A stretch of 64,000 nucleotides of DNA from a phage: sequence record QB031382.1; one strand, given 5' to 3'. The position numbers and the translations under genes were made by a program. Numbering within the stretch: the first letter of the stretch is position 1; every line of letters starts with the position of its first letter. Shown here piece after piece: positions 1 through 54,169 of the stretch. The notes beneath the pieces were generated by a model. It was not told the origin of the DNA and made no database searches. It saw only the letters and a program-made list of their open reading frames with translations.

Positions 1-890
1 AAAACCTCCCTAATTGCGGGGAAATCTTTATTATTGACACCACCAACCTGCCATGGTAACATGATAGAGGCTTCGAAGAGAGATCGAAGGTATGGTAACA
101 GTGTGTTAATTTAGATAATCCGCAGCGAAGCATCCGAAAGGATGAACGTTCAACGACTAGTCGAAAGACGTAGAATCAAGCGATTCGAAACGGGAGGGTG
201 AATGTGTAATACTAAAAAATGTATGGATTGCCAAAGAGTTCTACCTCTTGATGATTTCTTTTTATCATCTAAGAGCAAGGATGGATACTCAGGTACATGC
301 AAGGAATGCTATATGTACTACAGGAAGAATGGATCTCGTAGAAACAAAAATATGGTTAAGAGAGATGATGCAGCATCTTTTATTCAAGACTTGCTGAAGA
401 AAGGTGAGCTTTTTGAATGTAAATCTTGTCATGAAAGTATGCTTGCTGATAGTTTTTACACAAAACGTGACTATGGTAAAGTGTATCTGGTTACGAACAG
501 GTGTAAGATGTGTGAAAAGTTTTATCAGATTGAGAAGAAATTTCACATAACAAAAGATGAATACTATCGTTTACTCTCAGATCAAGATCATAAGTGTGCC
601 ATTTGTAGAATATCTCTTGATGAGTATAGGACGCAAGGGTACAGAGATTTCTTTTGTGTTGATCATGATCATAAAACTGGTGCTGTAAGAGGGTTGCTTT
701 GTGATAAATGCAACAGAGCTTTAGGTTTCTTCCAAGAGGATGAGGAAACCATTCTTAGAGCGGCAGAGTATTTGCACATTCATAAGATATAGTCTGGTCT
801 GCATGGAGACATGCAGCTGCCTGAAAATGGCGGGGCAAGACTAGCGACCTTGCCCGAACATAAACGACGCAGTTCGAATGGGAGCAGATA
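1..890 (+). mobile_element. Probable group I intron (5' end outside window) interrupting the large-terminase gene and carrying an HNH endonuclease ORF
   Basis: 1-201 and 793-~890 have stops in all frames. 12-24 reads AATTGCGGGGAAA, resembling a conserved group I intron core element. The downstream ORF encodes only the C-terminal part of a terminase. 3' boundary uncertain (864-899). Confidence 0.4.
202..792 (+). CDS. HNH homing endonuclease (intron-encoded or free-standing)
   Basis: ATG preceded by GGGAGGG. Cys-rich; C-terminal CVDHDHKTGAVRGLLCDKCNRALG is a classic HNH motif. AT-rich codon usage unlike neighbouring virion genes. Confidence 0.8.
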   Translation: MCNTKKCMDCQRVLPLDDFFLSSKSKDGYSGTCKECYMYYRKNGSRRNKNMVKRDDAASFIQDLLKKGELFECKSCHESMLADSFYTKRDYGKVYLVTNRCKMCEKFYQIEKKFHITKDEYYRLLSDQDHKCAICRISLDEYRTQGYRDFFCVDHDHKTGAVRGLLCDKCNRALGFFQEDEETILRAAEYLHIHKI

Positions 891-9733: not shown

Positions 9734-11110
9734 ATGCCATATTTAGATAAAGTGGTAGATGTTACAGTTAACCTCGGAACCCAGCCTATTGACACTGTAG
9801 GTTTCGAAACCCCGCTGTTCATCGCTATCCACAACAACTTTACTGAGCGAGCTCGCGTATATGCTGAGCTGGATCAGATGGTGGAAGACGGTTTCGCACA
9901 AGGCTCTGCAGCGTATGAGTTTGCAGCAAAAGCTTTCGGCGGTGTATTCCCTCCACAGTATGTTATGATCGGCAGACAGGCAAAAGAAAAAACCACTGTA
10001 GATTTTAAAGGTATTGCTGCCGCAGCTGATACCGATGTCGTAATGACTATTGCAAAAGGTAGCTACAATACTTCTCTGATAGTGCCTATCTCTGGTGGAA
10101 CAGGTGCAACTCAGATTGCAGAGTCAATGAAGACTAAAATTGAAGCAGATGATAGCTTGAACGATATCACTGTAGCGGCTGAAGACGGTGTTCTCACCAT
10201 CACGGGTGACTGTACTGTTGGTTATCATACTGGTAACTATACAATCAAAAATATCGCAAATGCTGAAAAACCTTCTACAGTAGTTGATAAGATCAATGCT
10301 GAGCGTGACAATTGGTACTTCCTGTGCCATGAAGACCACACCGACATTGAAGCATGTGCGAAGTGGGCTCAGGCTAACTACAAGCTGCATGTCTACTCTA
10401 CTGCAGAAGATGTTACTGGTAAAGATAATAACATCGCCACCAAACTGAAAGCTGCACAATATGACAGTGTCGGCATGTACGATCCTCGTGCAGATAAGGA
10501 CTTCCCGGAGGGTGGTATCGTAGGCGCTATGGCATCCAACGATCCGTCTTACGGTGACAGCTTGCATTTAAAACAGATGCCAGGTGTGATTGCACCGTCT
10601 CTGACTTTAACTCAGCGTATGGCGATTTGGGAAAACCACGTTAACTTCTATAGAATGATTAACGGTGTCGGCGCTTTCTGGGAAGGTAAGTGTGCTTCAG
10701 GTCAGTATGCAGACGCTATTCGTTTTGCACACTGGATCAAGTTCAGATCTGAAGAATCCATGTTCGGGTACATGCATCGCCGCTCCAATATGGGTTTAAG
10801 CATGAAGATGTCTGATGATGATCTTCCGGTTATCAAGTCTGTTCTGATGAACAACCCGATCAATACTGGCATTAAGAATGGTGCGATCCTGACAGGTTTT
10901 GACGAAGACAACAATGTGTTCTACGACCCGATCATCACAGTTCCTAAACGTGCAGAAATCCCAACCAATCAGTTGGCTGCTCGTGTTCTGGAAGGTGTGA
11001 AAGTAGAACTGGTGTATAACAACGCCCTGCACTTCGTTCGTATCCGGATCAACGTCCTCCTGGACAAAGTTGGTTCTAAATCCACCAATGCTGTTGCAAT
11101 GACTGAATAA
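9734..11110 (+). CDS. Tail sheath protein (putative)
   Basis: 458-aa ORF with host-optimised codons, followed by a ~157-aa tube-sized ORF, chaperones and tape measure (canonical contractile-tail order). Confidence 0.5.
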   Translation: MPYLDKVVDVTVNLGTQPIDTVGFETPLFIAIHNNFTERARVYAELDQMVEDGFAQGSAAYEFAAKAFGGVFPPQYVMIGRQAKEKTTVDFKGIAAAADTDVVMTIAKGSYNTSLIVPISGGTGATQIAESMKTKIEADDSLNDITVAAEDGVLTITGDCTVGYHTGNYTIKNIANAEKPSTVVDKINAERDNWYFLCHEDHTDIEACAKWAQANYKLHVYSTAEDVTGKDNNIATKLKAAQYDSVGMYDPRADKDFPEGGIVGAMASNDPSYGDSLHLKQMPGVIAPSLTLTQRMAIWENHVNFYRMINGVGAFWEGKCASGQYADAIRFAHWIKFRSEESMFGYMHRRSNMGLSMKMSDDDLPVIKSVLMNNPINTGIKNGAILTGFDEDNNVFYDPIITVPKRAEIPTNQLAARVLEGVKVELVYNNALHFVRIRINVLLDKVGSKSTNAVAMTE

Positions 11111-11120
11111 GGAAGACTAG

Positions 11121-11594
11121 ATGGAAACTCAAATTTTAACTCCTTATGCGTATGACCCTAAAAAGGTCAAACTGTATCTGATGCAGCAGCGTGTCACTGG
11201 CTTCGCTGCTGACACCAAGATCGTTGTTTCAAGAAACGAAGACAACATCTACCCTCACGTTGGTGTGGATGGTGAAATGTCTGCGGCCCTGTCTCGTAAC
11301 CAATCTGGTGTTATGACTGTATCTTTGCAGAACACTTCTGTATGGAACGCTTACCTTTCTGACTGGCAGAAACAGGCATCGATTACTGGTCTGGTATTCT
11401 TCCCGGTTCTGCTGGAAGGTAGCCAAGGCCCTGGTATTTCTACAATCGGTTGGATCCAGAAACAGCCTGACCTGACTTACGGAACCGAAGTAGGTCAACT
11501 GGACTGGGATATCGGTATTCTGGATGCATGGCTCAACCGTGACAACATCACTGGTGCTCTCACTGGCCTCGCAGGTCTTGCAGGTATTATCTAA
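11121..11594 (+). CDS. Tail tube protein (putative)
   Basis: 157 aa directly after the sheath candidate; followed by a terminator. Confidence 0.5.
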   Translation: METQILTPYAYDPKKVKLYLMQQRVTGFAADTKIVVSRNEDNIYPHVGVDGEMSAALSRNQSGVMTVSLQNTSVWNAYLSDWQKQASITGLVFFPVLLEGSQGPGISTIGWIQKQPDLTYGTEVGQLDWDIGILDAWLNRDNITGALTGLAGLAGII

Positions 11595-11611
11595 GGGCAC
11601 ACTTTAGTATA

Positions 11612-11643
11612 AGCCTCACCTTCGGGTGGGGCTTTTTGCTTTT
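11612..11643 (+). terminator. Intrinsic terminator after tube gene
   Basis: AGCCTCACC / TTCG loop / GGTGGGGCT, then TTTTTGCTTTT. Confidence 0.6.
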
Positions 11644-11649
11644 AGGGTT

Positions 11650-11678
11650 TTGACATATTTGTTTGTTTTTAGTATCCT
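11650..11678 (+). promoter_or_regulatory. Sigma70-like promoter for the endonuclease-like gene
   Basis: TTGACA, 17-nt spacer, TATCCT (weak -10). Confidence 0.35.
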
Positions 11679-11699
11679 ACAATAAAGGAGGAGACAGTT

Positions 11700-13325
11700 A
11701 TGGCTAAATTGAGTGCAGAAAGGTTTATCGAAAAAGCTCGTAGGGTTCACGGAGATAAGTACGATTATTCTCTTATAGAATACAAAACATGCAAAGATAA
11801 GGTAGAAATAGTCTGCAATACCTGCGGTAACCACTTCAACCAGACACCTGATAACCATATAAATCTAAAAAGAGGATGCCCTGTTTGTGGAGCTGAGAGA
11901 TCTGCAAAATCAAGAAAGGGTAAGAAATTCCCACATGAGCGTGGTAACAGGTGCACTACCGAGGAGTGGATCAAAAAGGTACTAAAAAGATATCCTGAAA
12001 ATGCTGAAAAGTATGATTATAGCCATGTAGTGTACAAGACCTCTGGGGATAAGGTTGAGATTCATTGCAAAACGTGCGGAAGAATAATGTATCAGAAACC
12101 CAGCAAGCATTTATCTGGGCAAGGGTGCAAGACTTGCGCAGCAAGGTCTGTTTCTGTGAAAAAAGTTCCTAGCTTCCAAGAAATAGTTGAGAGATGTGTA
12201 GAAGTTCATGGTGGGGATTATGAGTATTTTGAAGACTCTTATGTGAACGCCTCAACGCCTATGATGATGCGCCACAAAGAGTGTGGGAATATCTTCATGC
12301 AGCGTCCTGAATTCCATTACGGGAAAGGACAAGGATGCCCTCGTTGCTGTCGCAATCAGTCTAATGGTGAAAAAGAGATCCTGACGTTCATTAAAAGTGT
12401 CTATAGCGGAGATATTGAAGAGAACGTGCGGATTCTGGACAACTTTAAAGATCCTTCCAAGAAAAAGATGGAGCTGGACATTTATATCCCGGAGCTTAAG
12501 CTTGCTGTGGAATATAATGGTGCCTATTGGCACTCCGTGGATAGTAAGGGGAAATGGTACCACATCCTGAAAAGGAAGGCCTGTGAAAAACAAGGTATTC
12601 GCATGTTGTCTATATGGGATTGTGATTGGCAGGATGCTCGGAAAAGACCTATCATTGAGAGATATCTTAAGAATGCTTTAGGAGTCAAAGACGAGAAGAC
12701 CGTCTATGCCAGAAAGTGCACAGTTAGGGATGTGGACAATAAAACTTACCGTGACTTTATGGAGAAAAACCACATTCAAGGGTATGCTCCCGCCAAGGAA
12801 GTGAAGAAGGGTCTGTTTACATCTGACGGTGAGCTGGTAGCTTGTATGAGTTTTAAGGTATTGAAAAACAGAGATCAAAAGGTAACCCCTTTCGTTATGT
12901 GGGACATGGTAAGGTATGCAACAAGCTGTAACGTTCCTGGTGGGCGTAGTAAGCTGTTTAAGCATATCCAAAAAGAGTTTAAGATGGATCATGTTCAATC
13001 CTTCCTTGACAGGGATTACTTCACAGGTGTGTCCTATAAGGAGGAGGATGGCTGGATTTTGGCAGAGGACGATCAGGTATCTACCAGCTTCTGGAGCTAC
13101 CGTGGTGGCAGAATGCCAAGACAGGCTTGGTGGAAGTCAAACATCCAAGAGACACTGAAGCATTTAGGGTTGGACGAGTCCTTATACGATCCTGAGAAAA
13201 CACAAGAGTGGAATGCTAAAAATGCAGGCTGCTATATCCTTGAAAACAGCGGCAACTCTCGCTTCGAATGGCACAGCGATGAAGGTAAAAATGATCCTGC
13301 GTACTTGGATTGGTTGAAAGGTTAA
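11700..13325 (+). CDS. Homing-endonuclease-like protein: three zinc-ribbon repeats plus a PD-(D/E)XK (DUF559/Vsr-like) nuclease motif
   Basis: Three ~55-aa repeats each with C-x2-C ... GCPxC. ELDIYIPELKLAVEYNGAYWHS matches the D...E-x-(D/N)-G..WH signature. AGA/AGG-rich codons; own promoter and RBS. Confidence 0.5.
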   Translation: MAKLSAERFIEKARRVHGDKYDYSLIEYKTCKDKVEIVCNTCGNHFNQTPDNHINLKRGCPVCGAERSAKSRKGKKFPHERGNRCTTEEWIKKVLKRYPENAEKYDYSHVVYKTSGDKVEIHCKTCGRIMYQKPSKHLSGQGCKTCAARSVSVKKVPSFQEIVERCVEVHGGDYEYFEDSYVNASTPMMMRHKECGNIFMQRPEFHYGKGQGCPRCCRNQSNGEKEILTFIKSVYSGDIEENVRILDNFKDPSKKKMELDIYIPELKLAVEYNGAYWHSVDSKGKWYHILKRKACEKQGIRMLSIWDCDWQDARKRPIIERYLKNALGVKDEKTVYARKCTVRDVDNKTYRDFMEKNHIQGYAPAKEVKKGLFTSDGELVACMSFKVLKNRDQKVTPFVMWDMVRYATSCNVPGGRSKLFKHIQKEFKMDHVQSFLDRDYFTGVSYKEEDGWILAEDDQVSTSFWSYRGGRMPRQAWWKSNIQETLKHLGLDESLYDPEKTQEWNAKNAGCYILENSGNSRFEWHSDEGKNDPAYLDWLKG

Positions 13326-13326
13326 A

Positions 13327-13355
13327 TTGACAATGCGCTATAATCATGGTAAAAT
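13327..13355 (+). promoter_or_regulatory. Sigma70-like promoter
   Basis: TTGACA, 17-nt spacer, TGGTAAAAT. Confidence 0.55.
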
Positions 13356-13398: not shown

Positions 13399-13872
13399 AT
13401 GGCTATAAACTTTAGACCTACAACAGAGATTGATTTAGCAGGGCACAACTTTGTGATCACTCACTGGGGGCCGATGAAAGCAATGAAAAACATGCCTAAA
13501 ATCGGTAAGATTGTGGCTGTCCCGCTAGGTGCTATCGGTGGATCTATTCTCTCAGGCGGTCAAAATATGGCAGAGGTCCTTCCTACAGCCCTGGCTTACC
13601 TGTTCCAAGAACTTGATGATAACTCTATTGAAGAGTTATTTAAAATCTTGTTCGAAGATATTACCGTGGATGGTGTGGATAAGCTTAACCCTGATGTTGT
13701 GTTTGCAGGGCATCTGCTGGAGATGATTAAGCTGGCAGGTAAGGTTCTGGAGGTTAACTACGGCTGTTTTTTCACACAAGACGGTTTAGGAAGCCTTCTG
13801 GAGATGTTACAGCAGATGGGTATGATCCAGCAGGTGAACAATCTGGATCAGACTCCGGAAGAGCAGGAATAA
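13399..13872 (+). CDS. Tail assembly chaperone (putative)
   Basis: 157-aa acidic protein between tube and tape measure. Confidence 0.4.
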   Translation: MAINFRPTTEIDLAGHNFVITHWGPMKAMKNMPKIGKIVAVPLGAIGGSILSGGQNMAEVLPTALAYLFQELDDNSIEELFKILFEDITVDGVDKLNPDVVFAGHLLEMIKLAGKVLEVNYGCFFTQDGLGSLLEMLQQMGMIQQVNNLDQTPEEQE

Positions 13873-13883
13873 GCAAGGTTGTT

Positions 13884-14132
13884 GTGAGGGCCAGTGAGTG
13901 GGCAGCCAAGAACAGTTCACTTAACTGGTTCGACTTTCTTTGGTGCAGGGTGCTCAAGAATTTCAAAGGGGAAAATTTTGAATCGCTAAATCTTGCAGAT
14001 ATGGCGTATTTCCTGAAGCTCTGTGAGTATCTTGATATCGAAGAATTCCTAGATACCGTCCAAAACAGGGAAATGGAGCGGGAGCAGAAGGCTGCCGCAG
14101 CTGCTGCGAAAGCTAAGCGCAGGAGAGGATAA
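13884..14132 (+). CDS. Small protein upstream of tape measure (possible second chaperone)
   Basis: GTG-initiated 82-aa ORF in the -1 frame relative to the preceding gene; no slippery heptamer found. Confidence 0.35.
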   Translation: MRASEWAAKNSSLNWFDFLWCRVLKNFKGENFESLNLADMAYFLKLCEYLDIEEFLDTVQNREMEREQKAAAAAAKAKRRRG

Positions 14133-14186: not shown

Positions 14187-16523
14187 ATGGCTACAAACAA
14201 AATAGTTGCCACAACAGTCAACAAGATTGGCTTTGAGATAGAGAACTCCTCCTACAAAAAAGCTGTAGAGAAAATTCGCAGTATTGGGAGGGAGTTCAGG
14301 AAACTTGGCGAGGATTTTAACTCAGCCAACCCGATGAGTAGATGGCAGGCAGTGGCTGTTAAAACCCAGCAAACAATGCAGCGGGTTGCCAGACAGCAAT
14401 CTCAGGCAAATGCTAAACTGCACAGGGAGAGCGTAGCACAAGCCAAGAAAGAGGCTGCAGTAAGGGCCGCAATAGAACGTAGGGAGAACGCGAGACGTAA
14501 ACAAGCTGTAGGCAATCTTACCGCTAAAAATCCAGAAATGGCTAGGATGCGTAAGTTCTACCAGCAGCAAGCTAAAGAGGCCAAAAAGGCTGCCAAATCT
14601 ACACCAGTGTCTTACGGCGGTTATAAGGCACCTAAGGCAAGAGTTTTGGCTAATGCCAAATCTTTCAAGTATATCCCTGGTAACCATAATATGGGTGGTG
14701 TGGCTTCCGACCCTAACCTTGTGAAAGCTCAGACAGCCGCTATGAATCGTTATCATAGACAGCTAAGAAGGGACAGTAAAGCTGGCATGGATAATAGGCT
14801 TATGTCGGATCGTGAGGCAAGGAGAACCCACCTCTACAACTCTGCGATAAGACTTTCTGCCAAGTATGGAGCCGGATTCCGTGGAAGCTTGCCTGGATAC
14901 TCAGAGTTAGAGTCCAGGTTTGCTCGCGGGGAGATGAAAAAGTCAACCTTTAACGCCCACCTGTCAGCTCTGCAGTCTGGATTTAAAAGCGCCACCAGCC
15001 AAACGCTTACACTTGGTGATGCCATGAGAGACTTACGTAGGTCTGTTATTAATGCAACAGCTGCGTATACGGCTTTCTCTGGATTTACTGCTGTGAACAG
15101 ATCTGGTCACATGATGGAGGGGGCAAGTGCTGCTCTTACTGCTGTTACTGGAGATCCAAACAAAGCCAACAGTGAGGTTGCGTTTGTCCAGCAAGAGGCT
15201 ATGCGTCTTGGTTTTGATCTCAAATCTGGTCTTCAAGGTTACGCCCAGATGTCGGTAAACGCCAAAAACCAGATGACAAATCAGGAAGTGCATGAGCTGT
15301 TTTCTGCATACTCACAGTATGCTGCTGCTTATGGTGCCGATGAGGTAAAATACCAGCGTGGTATCATGGCAATCCAGCAAATGCTCGGGAAAGGACAGGT
15401 AATGTCCGAAGAACTGAAGCAACAACTTGCTGAAGCATTGCCTGGTGCATATGAACCTTTTATCAAGGCCACCAAAGAGGCTTTTGGTCTTTCTGAACTA
15501 TCCATGGATCAGTTCATGGACATGATGAAGAAAGGTGAGGTTAAGACAGCCAAGATCATGAAGTATGTGGCTAAGTACATGAACGAGGCATCTGCAGCTG
15601 GTTATGAAAGAATGCAGAAGTCTAACGTACTGGCAGAAAACAGACTGAAAACCTTCATCGAACTATCTCGTCAGAAGCTGTTCACCCGTTGGGCTGATGA
15701 ATTAACAGAGTTCTATTATACACTGATTCGCACAGGTGAGACTTTGCAATTTGTGTGGGATGCCTCTGGTGATTTTGTTAGCGGGTTTGTGAGAGGCCTC
15801 AACTGGGTAGTTGGTGAACTAAACAATACCATAGTCAAGATCCGCATGTTTTTCCTTGAGTGGGGGATTAAATGGGGATTCATAACAGCTAAGACGAAGG
15901 AATATTCTGAAGAGCTTCATGACACCTTTAGCTATGCTAAATGGGCAGGGTTTGCTGCTGCCATCATGCTGGTAGTGAACGCCCTGACAAAAGGTTTTGT
16001 CATGGCATCTATGCTTGTAAAAACCTTCAAATTCCTTAGCTCTATAAGAGGTGCAGCTGGAGCAGCAGCGGGTGCAGCTACCACAGAAGGATCTGGTGGG
16101 GGTGCAGCAGGAAAAGGGGGAGGTGGCCTCAAGACACCTGGTGGTAAAGTTGGCCTGCTTGGTAAGCTTGGTATTATCGGTACAATATTAAGTGCCGGGG
16201 AGTTATTTAATGACCGTTTCAACCCACTGAGTGAGAGAAATCAGCAACTGGATACTATCAGCGATATGATTCGCAAAGATATCATATCGGGAGGTAACGG
16301 GTTTGTTGATCCTTTGGATACCTTACCGGGAGGGACTCTTCCGTTGCCGGGTGGTCCTGGTTTTGCTTCTCAATTAAGAACTATGGAAATGCTACCTTTA
16401 GAGATCAGTGATGGCAAAATCACGATTTCAATAGATGAGGGTGAGTTTAGCAAAATACTTGATGCAAAACTTGAGTGGGAGAACAACAAAGATATTAACT
16501 TTATGTCAACAGATCTTTGGTAA
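14187..16523 (+). CDS. Tape measure protein
   Basis: 778 aa, largely helical. Contains a Gly/Ala-rich hydrophobic segment (GAAGAAAGAATTEGSGGGAAGKGGGG ... GIIGTILSAG). Confidence 0.7.
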   Translation: MATNKIVATTVNKIGFEIENSSYKKAVEKIRSIGREFRKLGEDFNSANPMSRWQAVAVKTQQTMQRVARQQSQANAKLHRESVAQAKKEAAVRAAIERRENARRKQAVGNLTAKNPEMARMRKFYQQQAKEAKKAAKSTPVSYGGYKAPKARVLANAKSFKYIPGNHNMGGVASDPNLVKAQTAAMNRYHRQLRRDSKAGMDNRLMSDREARRTHLYNSAIRLSAKYGAGFRGSLPGYSELESRFARGEMKKSTFNAHLSALQSGFKSATSQTLTLGDAMRDLRRSVINATAAYTAFSGFTAVNRSGHMMEGASAALTAVTGDPNKANSEVAFVQQEAMRLGFDLKSGLQGYAQMSVNAKNQMTNQEVHELFSAYSQYAAAYGADEVKYQRGIMAIQQMLGKGQVMSEELKQQLAEALPGAYEPFIKATKEAFGLSELSMDQFMDMMKKGEVKTAKIMKYVAKYMNEASAAGYERMQKSNVLAENRLKTFIELSRQKLFTRWADELTEFYYTLIRTGETLQFVWDASGDFVSGFVRGLNWVVGELNNTIVKIRMFFLEWGIKWGFITAKTKEYSEELHDTFSYAKWAGFAAAIMLVVNALTKGFVMASMLVKTFKFLSSIRGAAGAAAGAATTEGSGGGAAGKGGGGLKTPGGKVGLLGKLGIIGTILSAGELFNDRFNPLSERNQQLDTISDMIRKDIISGGNGFVDPLDTLPGGTLPLPGGPGFASQLRTMEMLPLEISDGKITISIDEGEFSKILDAKLEWENNKDINFMSTDLW

Positions 16524-52708: not shown

Positions 52709-54169
52709 TTATTTAGCGTACTCGATCAATTCTACAGTTTTCCCAAAGCTTGGGATATAATTTTTATTATACCCTTCGGTGAGAACCCATAAAGTATCGT
52801 ACTTTTTCCACTTGTTGTCAACAGCCTTTTGTTCAAAGTTATGCTCAAAGTATAGGTCGGTCAGGACGATGACATCTTTTGCATTTGGTATGTTAGCGTC
52901 CAGATACTCGAACACGCAAGCGGCTGTTGTTCCCCATGTTGAGTGGACCTCATAGTTGATCATCTCGTCGATGTTCCCACGAGTGTATACTTTAACCTCT
53001 CCAACCTCGGTTGACCAGCAGAACATCGTAACCTTGAACTCTTTATACAGATTGCACAACCCAGTGATCTCATTGAACATTTTCTTTAAAGTTCTTTGGG
53101 AGATCGATCCAGAAACGTCTAGAGCCACCACAATATCTATAGTGTTTTCCGGATTACGACCTGGAACAACAACGTGCTGATTCTTGTTTATAGCCCCAAC
53201 TTTTCGCATTGTGCTGGTCAAAGACCCAGATCGGCGACCGGGTTTTCTATAGGTTAGTTCAGCCTTTCGTTTAGACAGCATACGTTGCTTAATGATGTCT
53301 ATATAATTGATTACAGGCTTACCTCTGTTCTTGACAAACTCACGCACAGCCTCAGGGCAACGACCTCCGGAAGCCTGCATTGCTGCTTCCAACATGTCAC
53401 CAGAGTCCTGCATGGCTTGATCTTTATCAGATTGACTGATCACTGGTTGTGGCTGATCATACCCCATCGCCTTTCCAAGATCATCACTAGTGCCACCGTT
53501 ACCACTCATGTGATCATCGGTTTGTCGTTTATCTCCTTGAGAGTTCTCTCCTTTACCGTTCTTACTTTTACCGCTATTCTGATCTCTTTGCTTATCAAGA
53601 ACCGCATAGACGTTCTCAGCAATCCATCCATGGAACCTCATGTCACAGTAGCAACTAGCTAAGAAGCCAAAAGGCTTACCTTTTACAAACGTAGTGCTTT
53701 TCCCCTTCGGGAAGAAAACACAAGGTGGCTTGCTAAAGTCAACCACAAGACCTGTGTTGATAACATGATCACAGGCAATATTGAACAGCTCCGGCTCAAA
53801 GCTTTTACCACGGACCAGATGATCACAGATAATATGTCCCACCTCATGCGATAGAAGAAATGCCACCTCTTTCACAGATTTGGGGGAATAGAAAACCTCA
53901 GCCATCTCAAACTGCTTGTCAGTCAAAGATGCCTTAAGAATGGTTTTGCGCTCATCGGCCAATCCCATAACGAACTCAGGACTGTAATAAATGCGTTTAT
54001 GATCTGTTGCCATGGTGGAGCACCATGTGTGGTTTTCTACGAACTGCAACCCTGATAACAGTGTGCCATAAAACGGCAGTTTTTCAAGAAGATACATACG
54101 TGCTGCCTGCAGCATTCGCAAGGCGTCATCTTTTTGTGCGGCAATGATTTCTGAACTTCTGCTATCCAT
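52709..54169 (-). CDS. VWA-domain protein with N-terminal HExxH metallopeptidase-like region
   Basis: HEVGHIICDH (HExxH) in the N-terminal third. C-terminal DVSGSIS fits a MIDAS DxSxS motif. Gln/Asp/Ser-rich linker between. Confidence 0.55.
   Translation of the reverse strand: MDSRSSEIIAAQKDDALRMLQAARMYLLEKLPFYGTLLSGLQFVENHTWCSTMATDHKRIYYSPEFVMGLADERKTILKASLTDKQFEMAEVFYSPKSVKEVAFLLSHEVGHIICDHLVRGKSFEPELFNIACDHVINTGLVVDFSKPPCVFFPKGKSTTFVKGKPFGFLASCYCDMRFHGWIAENVYAVLDKQRDQNSGKSKNGKGENSQGDKRQTDDHMSGNGGTSDDLGKAMGYDQPQPVISQSDKDQAMQDSGDMLEAAMQASGGRCPEAVREFVKNRGKPVINYIDIIKQRMLSKRKAELTYRKPGRRSGSLTSTMRKVGAINKNQHVVVPGRNPENTIDIVVALDVSGSISQRTLKKMFNEITGLCNLYKEFKVTMFCWSTEVGEVKVYTRGNIDEMINYEVHSTWGTTAACVFEYLDANIPNAKDVIVLTDLYFEHNFEQKAVDNKWKKYDTLWVLTEGYNKNYIPSFGKTVELIEYAK

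Follow-up and report, generated by a model that had tools for sequence, protein, structure and literature searches.

A probable Hef-like homing endonuclease gene, with Vsr-like nuclease and Mom-like domains, in the tail tube-chaperone spacer of a Vequintavirus

The name Hef stands for 'homing endonuclease-like function'; the enzyme was defined in phage U5, in which it cuts nrdB (PMC2988022). Taylor et al. assigned enzymes of the Hef type to the Vsr-like 'EDxHD' family; the prototype of that family, I-Bth0305I, is a homodimer with a footprint of ~60 bp (PMC3239194). Annotation of genes as Hef-like is routine in phages of the T4-like, ViI-like (LIMEstone) and Campylobacter CP8/CP220-like groups (PMC3296691); according to PMC2988022, homing by experiment is on record only for U5 Hef. 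Here we describe an open reading frame (ORF) of 541 amino acids (aa), with an ATG start and a TAA stop, at 11700-13325 on the (+) strand of a stretch of 64,000 nucleotides of phage DNA (sequence record QB031382.1; the whole stretch is called the window below). The ORF is flanked by the tail tube-like protein gene on one side and by the tail assembly chaperone gene on the other. At 96-98% identity, the region matches E. coli Vequintaviruses (rV5, FV3, HMD-6, JEP1), and the source phage of the window is an rV5-like E. coli phage (Vequintavirus). In our view the ORF is likely to be a free-standing gene for a Hef-like homing endonuclease that resides in the Vequintavirus tube-chaperone spacer. An earlier note on this DNA, made from the sequence alone, had already proposed a free-standing mobile endonuclease here, and the proposal stands: the ORF is real (the segment marked in the note begins at 11650, which is the -35 box of a sigma-70-like site), a nuclease fold is predicted, and the gene occurs sporadically at one precise intergenic site among near-identical phages, with an empty site in most relatives.

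By sequence comparison, the 541-aa protein belongs to the known Hef-like/EDxHD homing-endonuclease family (PHROG 559/3339), and its architecture is not novel. Its matches to phrog_559 (E 9e-112) and to phrog_3339 (E 1e-66) run over the full length, and it has 1392 homologs at E<=1e-5; a 49%-identical relative is named 'Hef-like homing endonuclease' in UniRef. Like the window gene, the genes of Hef and Hef-like enzymes are free-standing between conserved genes, and their products fall in the same PHROG families. The Hef-like 530-aa protein encoded at nrdA-nrdB of Tequatrovirus N2 served as proxy for U5 Hef in the homology comparison. It is 39% identical to the window protein over 171 aa (E 1e-29), the match taking in the nuclease core and extending halfway into the C-terminal, Mom-like domain. 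Hef itself was defined at this nrdA-nrdB locus (PMC2988022). The two differ in genomic site (nrdA-nrdB in N2, the tail tube-chaperone spacer here) and in the N-terminal region, which in the N2 protein has no DUF723-type zinc modules by Pfam, whereas the window protein has three. I-Bth0305I (PDB 3R3P) is intron-encoded, binds DNA through N-terminal NUMOD/HTH (helix-turn-helix) motifs and has its nuclease domain last; the window protein, in contrast, is the product of a free-standing gene, has zinc fingers and carries an added C-terminal Mom-like domain. The statement of the earlier note that the architecture is not of the HNH, GIY-YIG or LAGLIDADG type was correct, but the protein is not unclassified, being of the Hef-like/EDxHD family. 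An HNH identity, suggested by the label 'HNH endonuclease' of phrog_559, was rejected: neither the protein nor its homologs have an HNH match in Pfam, and the fold is PD-(D/E)XK. The label is a misnomer for the family. In NCBIfam the 541-aa protein has no match. The gene is best annotated as a Hef-like (Vsr-like/EDxHD) homing endonuclease with a Mom-like GNAT domain.

The Vsr-like PD-(D/E)XK (EDxHD-type) nuclease domain comprises residues 218-330 (12351-12689, +). The motif D...EYNG.YWH, to which the earlier note had pointed, is found as D260...E271-Y-N-G-x-Y-W-H278, and D260, E271, G274 and H278 are invariant in 53 homologs. Together the conserved nuclease residues are E224, D260, E271, N273, H278, H288 and K291, and the full signature, EDENHHK, is present in 44/53 homologs. 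In a comparison of the nuclease-region profile with PDB, the sole significant match was the catalytic domain of I-Bth0305I (3R3P, E 1.3e-8); a single-sequence phmmer search of PDB gave only noise-level matches (E~0.3), 3R3P among them. The predicted catalytic domain has a PD-(D/E)XK fold that is Vsr-like. In I-Bth0305I the composite E-D-x-H-D motif is made up of E170, D196, N208, H213 and D222, and the equivalents found here are E224 (in 51/53 homologs), D260 (53/53), N273 (47/53) and H278 (53/53). As far as residues and predicted fold can tell, the conserved active site is intact within a Vsr fold.

The region before the nuclease domain, residues 1-217, consists of three tandem treble-clef zinc fingers of the DUF723/DUF4379/CapR type, the same three modules that the earlier note had recognized. 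Module 1 covers residues ~5-66 (11712-11897, +), with C39, C42, C60 and C63 as ligands; module 2, residues ~86-149 (11955-12146, +), with C123, C126, C143 and C146; and module 3, residues ~158-217 (12171-12350, +), with H192, C195, C213 and C216. The modules align mutually as a ~60-aa repeat with two CxxC/HxxC knuckles and a KYDYS..V.Y...KV.I.C motif. The window protein scores under the Pfam cut-offs (DUF4379 20.0 vs 24.5; DUF723 15.3 vs 20.9); among the 53 homologs, matches are found in 50 for DUF4379, 44 for DUF723 and 19 for CapR. In phage homing endonucleases, zinc fingers of this kind have been described as DNA-binding modules arranged in tandem and in variable number (Barth et al. 2023, PMC10448857), and by analogy the modules of the window protein are presumed to bind DNA. 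Homing endonucleases of the T5orf172/CapR type (PMC10448857) resemble the window protein in having tandem, variable-number CapR/DUF723/DUF4379 zinc fingers, and their genes, like the window gene, sit at conserved phage gene boundaries. However, the T5orf172 catalytic domain is GIY-YIG-related, not Vsr-like, and the enzymes of this type are without a Mom-like domain.

The earlier note had left the C-terminal ~250 aa without a function. The region is somewhat shorter, ~210 aa (residues 331-541; 12690-13322, +), and is a Mom-like GNAT domain by Foldseek and hhalign. With a full-length model of pLDDT (predicted local distance difference test) 88.9, the top PDB matches in Foldseek were chains A and B of phage Mu Mom (8BV8; E 3e-5, probability 1.00), with generic GNATs ranking below. 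In hhalign, the domain profile matched a profile of 28 Mom proteins with 90.7% probability (E 1.3e-6, 117 columns), a comparison that supersedes the one with Mu Mom as a single sequence (7.5% probability). Detection of the relation to Mom from sequence only is marginal: a hidden Markov model of the domain found, among PDB sequences, only glyphosate N-acetyltransferase (E 0.008) and not Mom, and the window protein matches neither Mom (none at E<=0.1) nor GNAT in Pfam. Among the 53 homologs, Pfam Mom is matched by six (E<=0.01) and GNAT by five, the best score being the 36.3 bits of P0118 (cut-off 27.1). An exhaustive search with the domain alone (E<=1e-3) gave 8,329 cluster representatives, nearly all of them proteins of 430-680 aa in which the domain is C-terminal; a few standalone relatives of ~200-250 aa score as Pfam Mom (P0268, 30.6 bits). 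Mu Mom (PF25680) is the closest PDB structure to the domain, at an identity of only about 14-15%. It stands alone as a Gly-tRNA-dependent modifier of DNA adenine N6, whereas the window domain is fused to a nuclease and keeps a GG-x-S loop, nearer the canonical GNAT motif A than that of Mu Mom.

The Mom-type active site is partly kept. The equivalents of Mu Mom H58, R111 and Y159 are H358, R405 and Y446, each present in 53/53 homologs; that of S124 is S417, found in 42/53 and missing in 11/53; and that of D149 is D437, found in 43/53. At the position of R151 the window protein has D439, with R438 adjacent (R in 17/53 homologs, D in 31/53), and Y59 is replaced by I359 (I/V/L in homologs). Also replaced is W48, the residue of dimerization, by K348. 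The window protein, with the signature HIRSDRDY, retains 5/7 Mom active-site positions, that of R111 included, and the full H,R,S,D,R,Y set (Y59 left out) is kept in 10/53 homologs. The HTH-like insertion of Mom, residues 175-209, is required for activity; the hhalign alignment ends at Mom residue 170, and the Foldseek alignment is 206 columns long, against a chain of 222 residues. Of the Mom residues, both R111 and S124 are indispensable and R151 is essential in vivo (residue list from PMC13219725). R111 is Mom-specific, not general to GNATs, and is thought to recognize the substrate adenine (PMC7261163). As judged from the conservation among homologs, the Mom-like domain is under purifying selection at Mom-type active-site positions.

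What the Mom-like domain does in a nuclease can be read in two ways. Because R151 and Y59 are replaced here and 11/53 homologs are without the catalytic serine, we lean, if weakly, to a domain that binds DNA and possibly flips a base, so aiding target recognition or self-protection. It is rather doubtful that the domain is a working DNA-adenine acyl- or aminoacyl-transferase that protects the carrier's own cognate sites, or the repaired product, from the nuclease by marking them. Were this the case, Hef-like elements would combine, in a single chain, a homing endonuclease with a selfish restriction-modification system, and tRNA- or CoA-dependent DNA modification would be their immunity mechanism. 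Since the chemistry of Mom has recently been solved as Gly-tRNA-dependent (PMC13219725), the role of the Mom domain inside homing endonucleases is now directly testable. The profile in the Mom mechanism paper was built on sequences 'only containing Mom domains'. In the literature searched, no test of the role of the domain in such nucleases was found, nor did a full-text search yield a paper linking Mom/GNAT with phage homing endonucleases.

Fusion of a nuclease to Mom has already been recorded for jumbo phages: Iyer et al. 2021 described restriction endonuclease-Mom (REase-Mom) fusions as restriction plus self-protection, with five momylating enzymes in PA5oct (PMC7824862). Among phage records, 416 have a match to the nuclease and Mom-like part of the window protein, with coverage of >=80% in 248; the annotations vary, with 'Hef-like homing endonuclease' at one end and 'putative nuclease/acetyltransferase protein' at the other. 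Copies of this part number 10-12 in CP8-like Campylobacter phages and five in PA5oct-like jumbo phages; in the PA5oct-like MIJ3 and Paride there are 5 matches each, which fits the five momylating enzymes of PA5oct. The REase-Mom fusions of jumbo phages and the window protein are probably of the same protein family, and the two literatures, on 'Hef-like homing endonucleases' and on 'REase-Mom fusions', appear to describe one very large family under two names. The PA5oct-type fusions, however, were read by their authors as a restriction-plus-protection pair, not as a homing endonuclease; in the literature, no experiments for either reading were found.

Transferred to the window protein, the restriction-plus-protection reading would make it a single-chain, restriction-modification-like exclusion system, in which the Mom-like domain acylates the phage's own adenines and the nuclease, guided by the zinc fingers, destroys the unmodified DNA of the host or of a co-infecting phage. 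Spread of the gene would be a by-product; an overlap with homing is possible, modification then being the self-immunity of a homing endonuclease. We regard such a system as an unlikely account of the gene, although it has precedent in the interpretation given to the jumbo-phage fusions (PMC7824862). The invariance of three Mom residues, and the presence of two more in most homologs, are what it would lead one to expect, but the replacements at R151 and Y59 and the loss of the S124 equivalent in part of the family are not. In the sampled multi-domain relatives that have a nuclease match in Pfam, the nuclease is always of the Vsr/DUF559/MTES_1575 type, a coupling as tight as in restriction-modification pairs. 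On the other hand, selfish elements are a better fit for the 10-12 copies, all at different sites, in each Campylobacter phage genome, together with the polymorphism at one site described next. Moreover, most Vequintaviruses are without the gene, and evidence of momylated Vequintavirus DNA was not found.

The homing endonuclease reading draws on the distribution of the gene. The endonuclease ORF is covered by 5/138 matching phage records (HMD-6, JEP1, PDX, A147 and A135), and in HMD-6 and JEP1 it is labelled 'hypothetical protein'. Most non-carrier records match 76% of the query in two pieces, and in most relatives the tube gene is joined directly to the chaperone gene. The interruption of the tube-chaperone-tape measure order, as described in the earlier note, is thus confirmed, and constitutes a presence/absence polymorphism within the otherwise rigid tail-morphogenesis block of Vequintaviruses. 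Such phages find use in phage therapy as well as in the BASEL collection. Three of the relatives, A147, A135 and A140 (L007, L008 and L013; MG065644, MG065690 and MG065674), are in records titled 'UNVERIFIED: Campylobacter phage'; over the region they are 92-96% identical to E. coli Vequintaviruses, and NCBI classes them as Vequintavirus, so their Campylobacter host label looks doubtful.

The alleles with and without the gene were aligned in a small sample, six occupied and seven empty (FV3, rV5 and five others). The segment present in occupied and not in empty alleles is 11656-13299 (+; 1,644 bp), as delimited by BLASTN breakpoints and the multiple alignment: homology to FV3 and rV5 ends at 11655 and restarts at 13300 in BLASTN. 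The junctions are identical in the six occupied and in the seven empty alleles, that is, there is one common empty allele. The empty junction reads ...GGTTTTGACACA|CGTTCTTGAATTGCTTGAAAGGTTAAATTGACA..., and the occupied one ...GGTTTTGACATA[insert]...CCTGCGTACTTGGATTGGTTGAAAGGTTAAATTGACA.... The empty alleles hold two remnants of the cassette. One is an orphan -35 hexamer (11650-11655); the other is the 3' end of the ORF, about 26-27 nt (13300-13325, +), which encodes ..YLDWLKG* and, as it stands in the empty allele, reads ..T-F-L-N-C-L-K-G* versus ..A-Y-L-D-W-L-K-G* in the window. Homologs down to ~50% identity have the C-terminal end DP.Y..WLKG, and a 51%-identical paralog at an nrdD locus ends in ...DPVYQDWLKG, with GACTGGTTGAAAGG as its tail DNA. 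Since the homologs and the nrdD-locus paralog share it, the DWLKG tail is part of the gene, not of the site.

Homologs with 62% and 66% identity lie, intact, at the same tube-chaperone position in more diverged Vequintavirinae-like contigs. With both ends of the cassette left as a scar and these homologs at the same site, the gene would be old here and deleted in most relatives. Our reading of the sequences is that the empty allele is a single deletion scar that spares the chaperone promoter, and that the cassette is ancestral at the locus. The suggestion in the earlier note of a recent insertion must therefore be given up. The retained 3' end of the ORF may be explained by the overlap, in relatives, of the end of the gene with the essential chaperone promoter. 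Such an overlap is seen in two diverged relatives (L014 5610-5700 and L017 5820-5910), in which the -35 hexamer TTGACA of the chaperone promoter lies inside the last codons of the endonuclease gene (..TGGATTGACAAACATGGTAAGTAA TGTTAAAAT). The deletion scar provides a concrete example of the loss phase in the homing-endonuclease cycle.

Two types of allele are found at the site. The window, HMD-6 and JEP1 have the 541-aa type with three zinc modules; PDX, A147 and A135 have a type of 611-616 aa, with a GTG start and an extra, fourth, N-terminal module (C..HG...C..C). That the majority allele is a deletion might suggest that the gene is now a decaying or domesticated remnant, which no longer homes and is hitch-hiking or co-opted, for example as a DNA-binding regulator of the chaperone/tape-measure operon, as CapR is a domesticated nuclease. 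The 3' end of the gene, which abuts the chaperone promoter here and overlaps it in the diverged relatives, would suit such a regulator, and the window allele is one zinc module short of the long allele. We nevertheless hold a remnant to be highly unlikely. The ORF is intact in 6/6 occupied genomes, whichever the allele type, and the conserved nuclease residues are all present. The same-site homologs at 62-66% identity are also intact, which argues for selection on the protein rather than decay. A function of the 541-aa protein in tail assembly was rejected, because the gene is absent from most relatives.

Under the homing endonuclease reading, which we prefer, the zinc-finger array would, in a mixed infection, bring the protein to a specific site within the tube-chaperone spacer, or close to it, in a genome that does not have the gene. 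The Vsr-like domain would cut both strands, probably as a dimer like I-Bth0305I, and recombinational repair from the carrier genome would copy the cassette and adjacent markers into the cut genome. Most E. coli Vequintaviruses would carry one common deletion allele of the ancestral cassette. Sequence differences near the junction bear on this scheme. Between the 541-aa-type occupied alleles and the empty alleles there are five fixed single-nucleotide polymorphisms (SNPs), at 11645, 11656, 13308, 13313 and 13339; all are within ~45 bp of the junction, and there are zero in the other ~6 kb of shared flank. Over the 150 shared columns at the junction, divergence is 5.3% between the groups and 1.0% within the empty group; away from the junction, between- and within-group divergence are about equal, and the flanks are mosaic. 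The junction-linked SNPs fit a recognition site at or near the junction or, equally, linkage to the deletion haplotype.

Several points weigh against homing at this locus. Because the empty allele is a scar left by deletion, loss and not gain through homing accounts for at least part of the presence/absence pattern. The junction-linked SNPs could be no more than markers of the deletion haplotype, and the sample on which these comparisons draw, six occupied and seven empty alleles, is small. An extended co-conversion tract was not found in the flanks. A pseudopalindrome like that of I-Bth0305I was sought near the empty junction and did not stand out from shuffled sequences, the best score of 6/7 being reached by 41% of them; none is put forward as a target. 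In the nuclease domain, D222 of I-Bth0305I (D97 of Vsr) aligns to a variable position, 290, with H288 and K291 as the nearest conserved residues. Finally, neither cleavage nor a target site nor homing is on record for this protein or any Vequintavirus homolog.

The best pseudopalindrome, ACCATAA|TCATGGT, is in the spacer of the chaperone promoter of the empty alleles (13333-13346 in window coordinates; centre at 2503 of the FV3 region, L001). A fixed C>T change at 13339 falls within it in the 541-aa-type occupied alleles; the long-allele phages are without the change.

The gene with its signals forms an autonomous cassette, consisting of a terminator, a promoter-like site, a strong Shine-Dalgarno (SD) sequence and the ORF, and neither neighbour is disrupted. 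Upstream the boundary is an intrinsic terminator 3' of the tail-tube gene (11611-11634, +; 10-bp stem with 6 GC pairs, T-run), which is kept in 13/13 aligned alleles, empty ones included. It is followed by a putative sigma-70-like promoter (11650-11678, +; TTGACA-17-TATCCT, 10/12 consensus match), whose -35 box is in DNA common to the empty alleles and whose -10 box is within the insert, and by the SD sequence AGGAGG (11686-11691, +). The long allele has TTGACA-17-TATCAT at the same promoter position. The promoter that the earlier note assigned to the gene holds up in part. The match by itself is not above chance (seven sites in the region versus 5.7 expected), but a promoter-like site is there, and a terminator, TTGAC(A/T)-N17-TAxxxT and a strong SD are arranged in the same order upstream of homologs in three other genomic contexts. 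Downstream the boundary is the promoter of the chaperone gene (13327-13355, +; 11/12 match with a TG extension), which is annotated in rV5 as P51 and begins 2 nt past the endonuclease stop codon. The neighbouring genes are those for tail sheath (9734-11110; phrog_205), the tail tube-like protein (11121-11594; KPP10_Orf10/phrog_280), the tail assembly chaperone (13399-13872; Phage_TAC_15) and the tape measure protein (14187-16523; TMP_3).

Codon usage had been taken in the earlier note to set the gene apart from its neighbours. The endonuclease ORF does score lower (0.064) than the four flanking virion genes (0.093-0.152), but against the window average (48 genes) it is unexceptional, with z = -0.1 for codon usage, +0.63 for GC content at third codon positions (GC3) and -0.69 for GC content. 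Because the ORF is average for the window, codon usage is uninformative on the origin of the gene, and a foreign origin on the grounds of codon usage or GC was rejected. A search of the window for a second copy (paralog) of the endonuclease gave none.

A true compositional outlier, unlike the 541-aa endonuclease ORF, is a 196-aa ORF at 202-792 (+), with GC of 35.4% and GC3 of 32.5% versus window means of 44.5% and 43.2%. It has a Recombination endonuclease VII domain (PF02945, E 2e-21) and is probably another free-standing endonuclease gene. Endonuclease genes are also seen at other positions in relatives. The 51%-identical paralog mentioned above (P0040; L015 589-8354) lies just 3' of an anaerobic ribonucleotide reductase gene (nrdD) that is broken into five ORFs; downstream of the paralog are a DUF723+MUG113 ORF and then a radical-SAM (nrdG-like) gene, and the nrdD locus of this contig resembles a hot spot for mobile endonucleases. 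In a metagenomic relative of 145 kb (L017 6695-9866), the tape measure gene is apparently split by an HNH_3 endonuclease ORF, the order being TMP_3 (414 aa), HNH_3 (174 aa) and a 365-aa ORF.

In the chaperone region of the window, a -1 frame is open over 13758-14132 and overlaps the chaperone gene, within which a slippery sequence, TTTTTTC, occurs at 13767. Tail assembly chaperones classically have such an arrangement, the G/GT programmed frameshift, and the rV5 annotation has an overlapping ORF50 at the corresponding place. At 52709-54169 (-), a 486-aa ORF unrelated to the endonuclease encodes a DUF2201_N putative metallopeptidase domain together with a VWA-like DUF2201 domain (E 5e-28).

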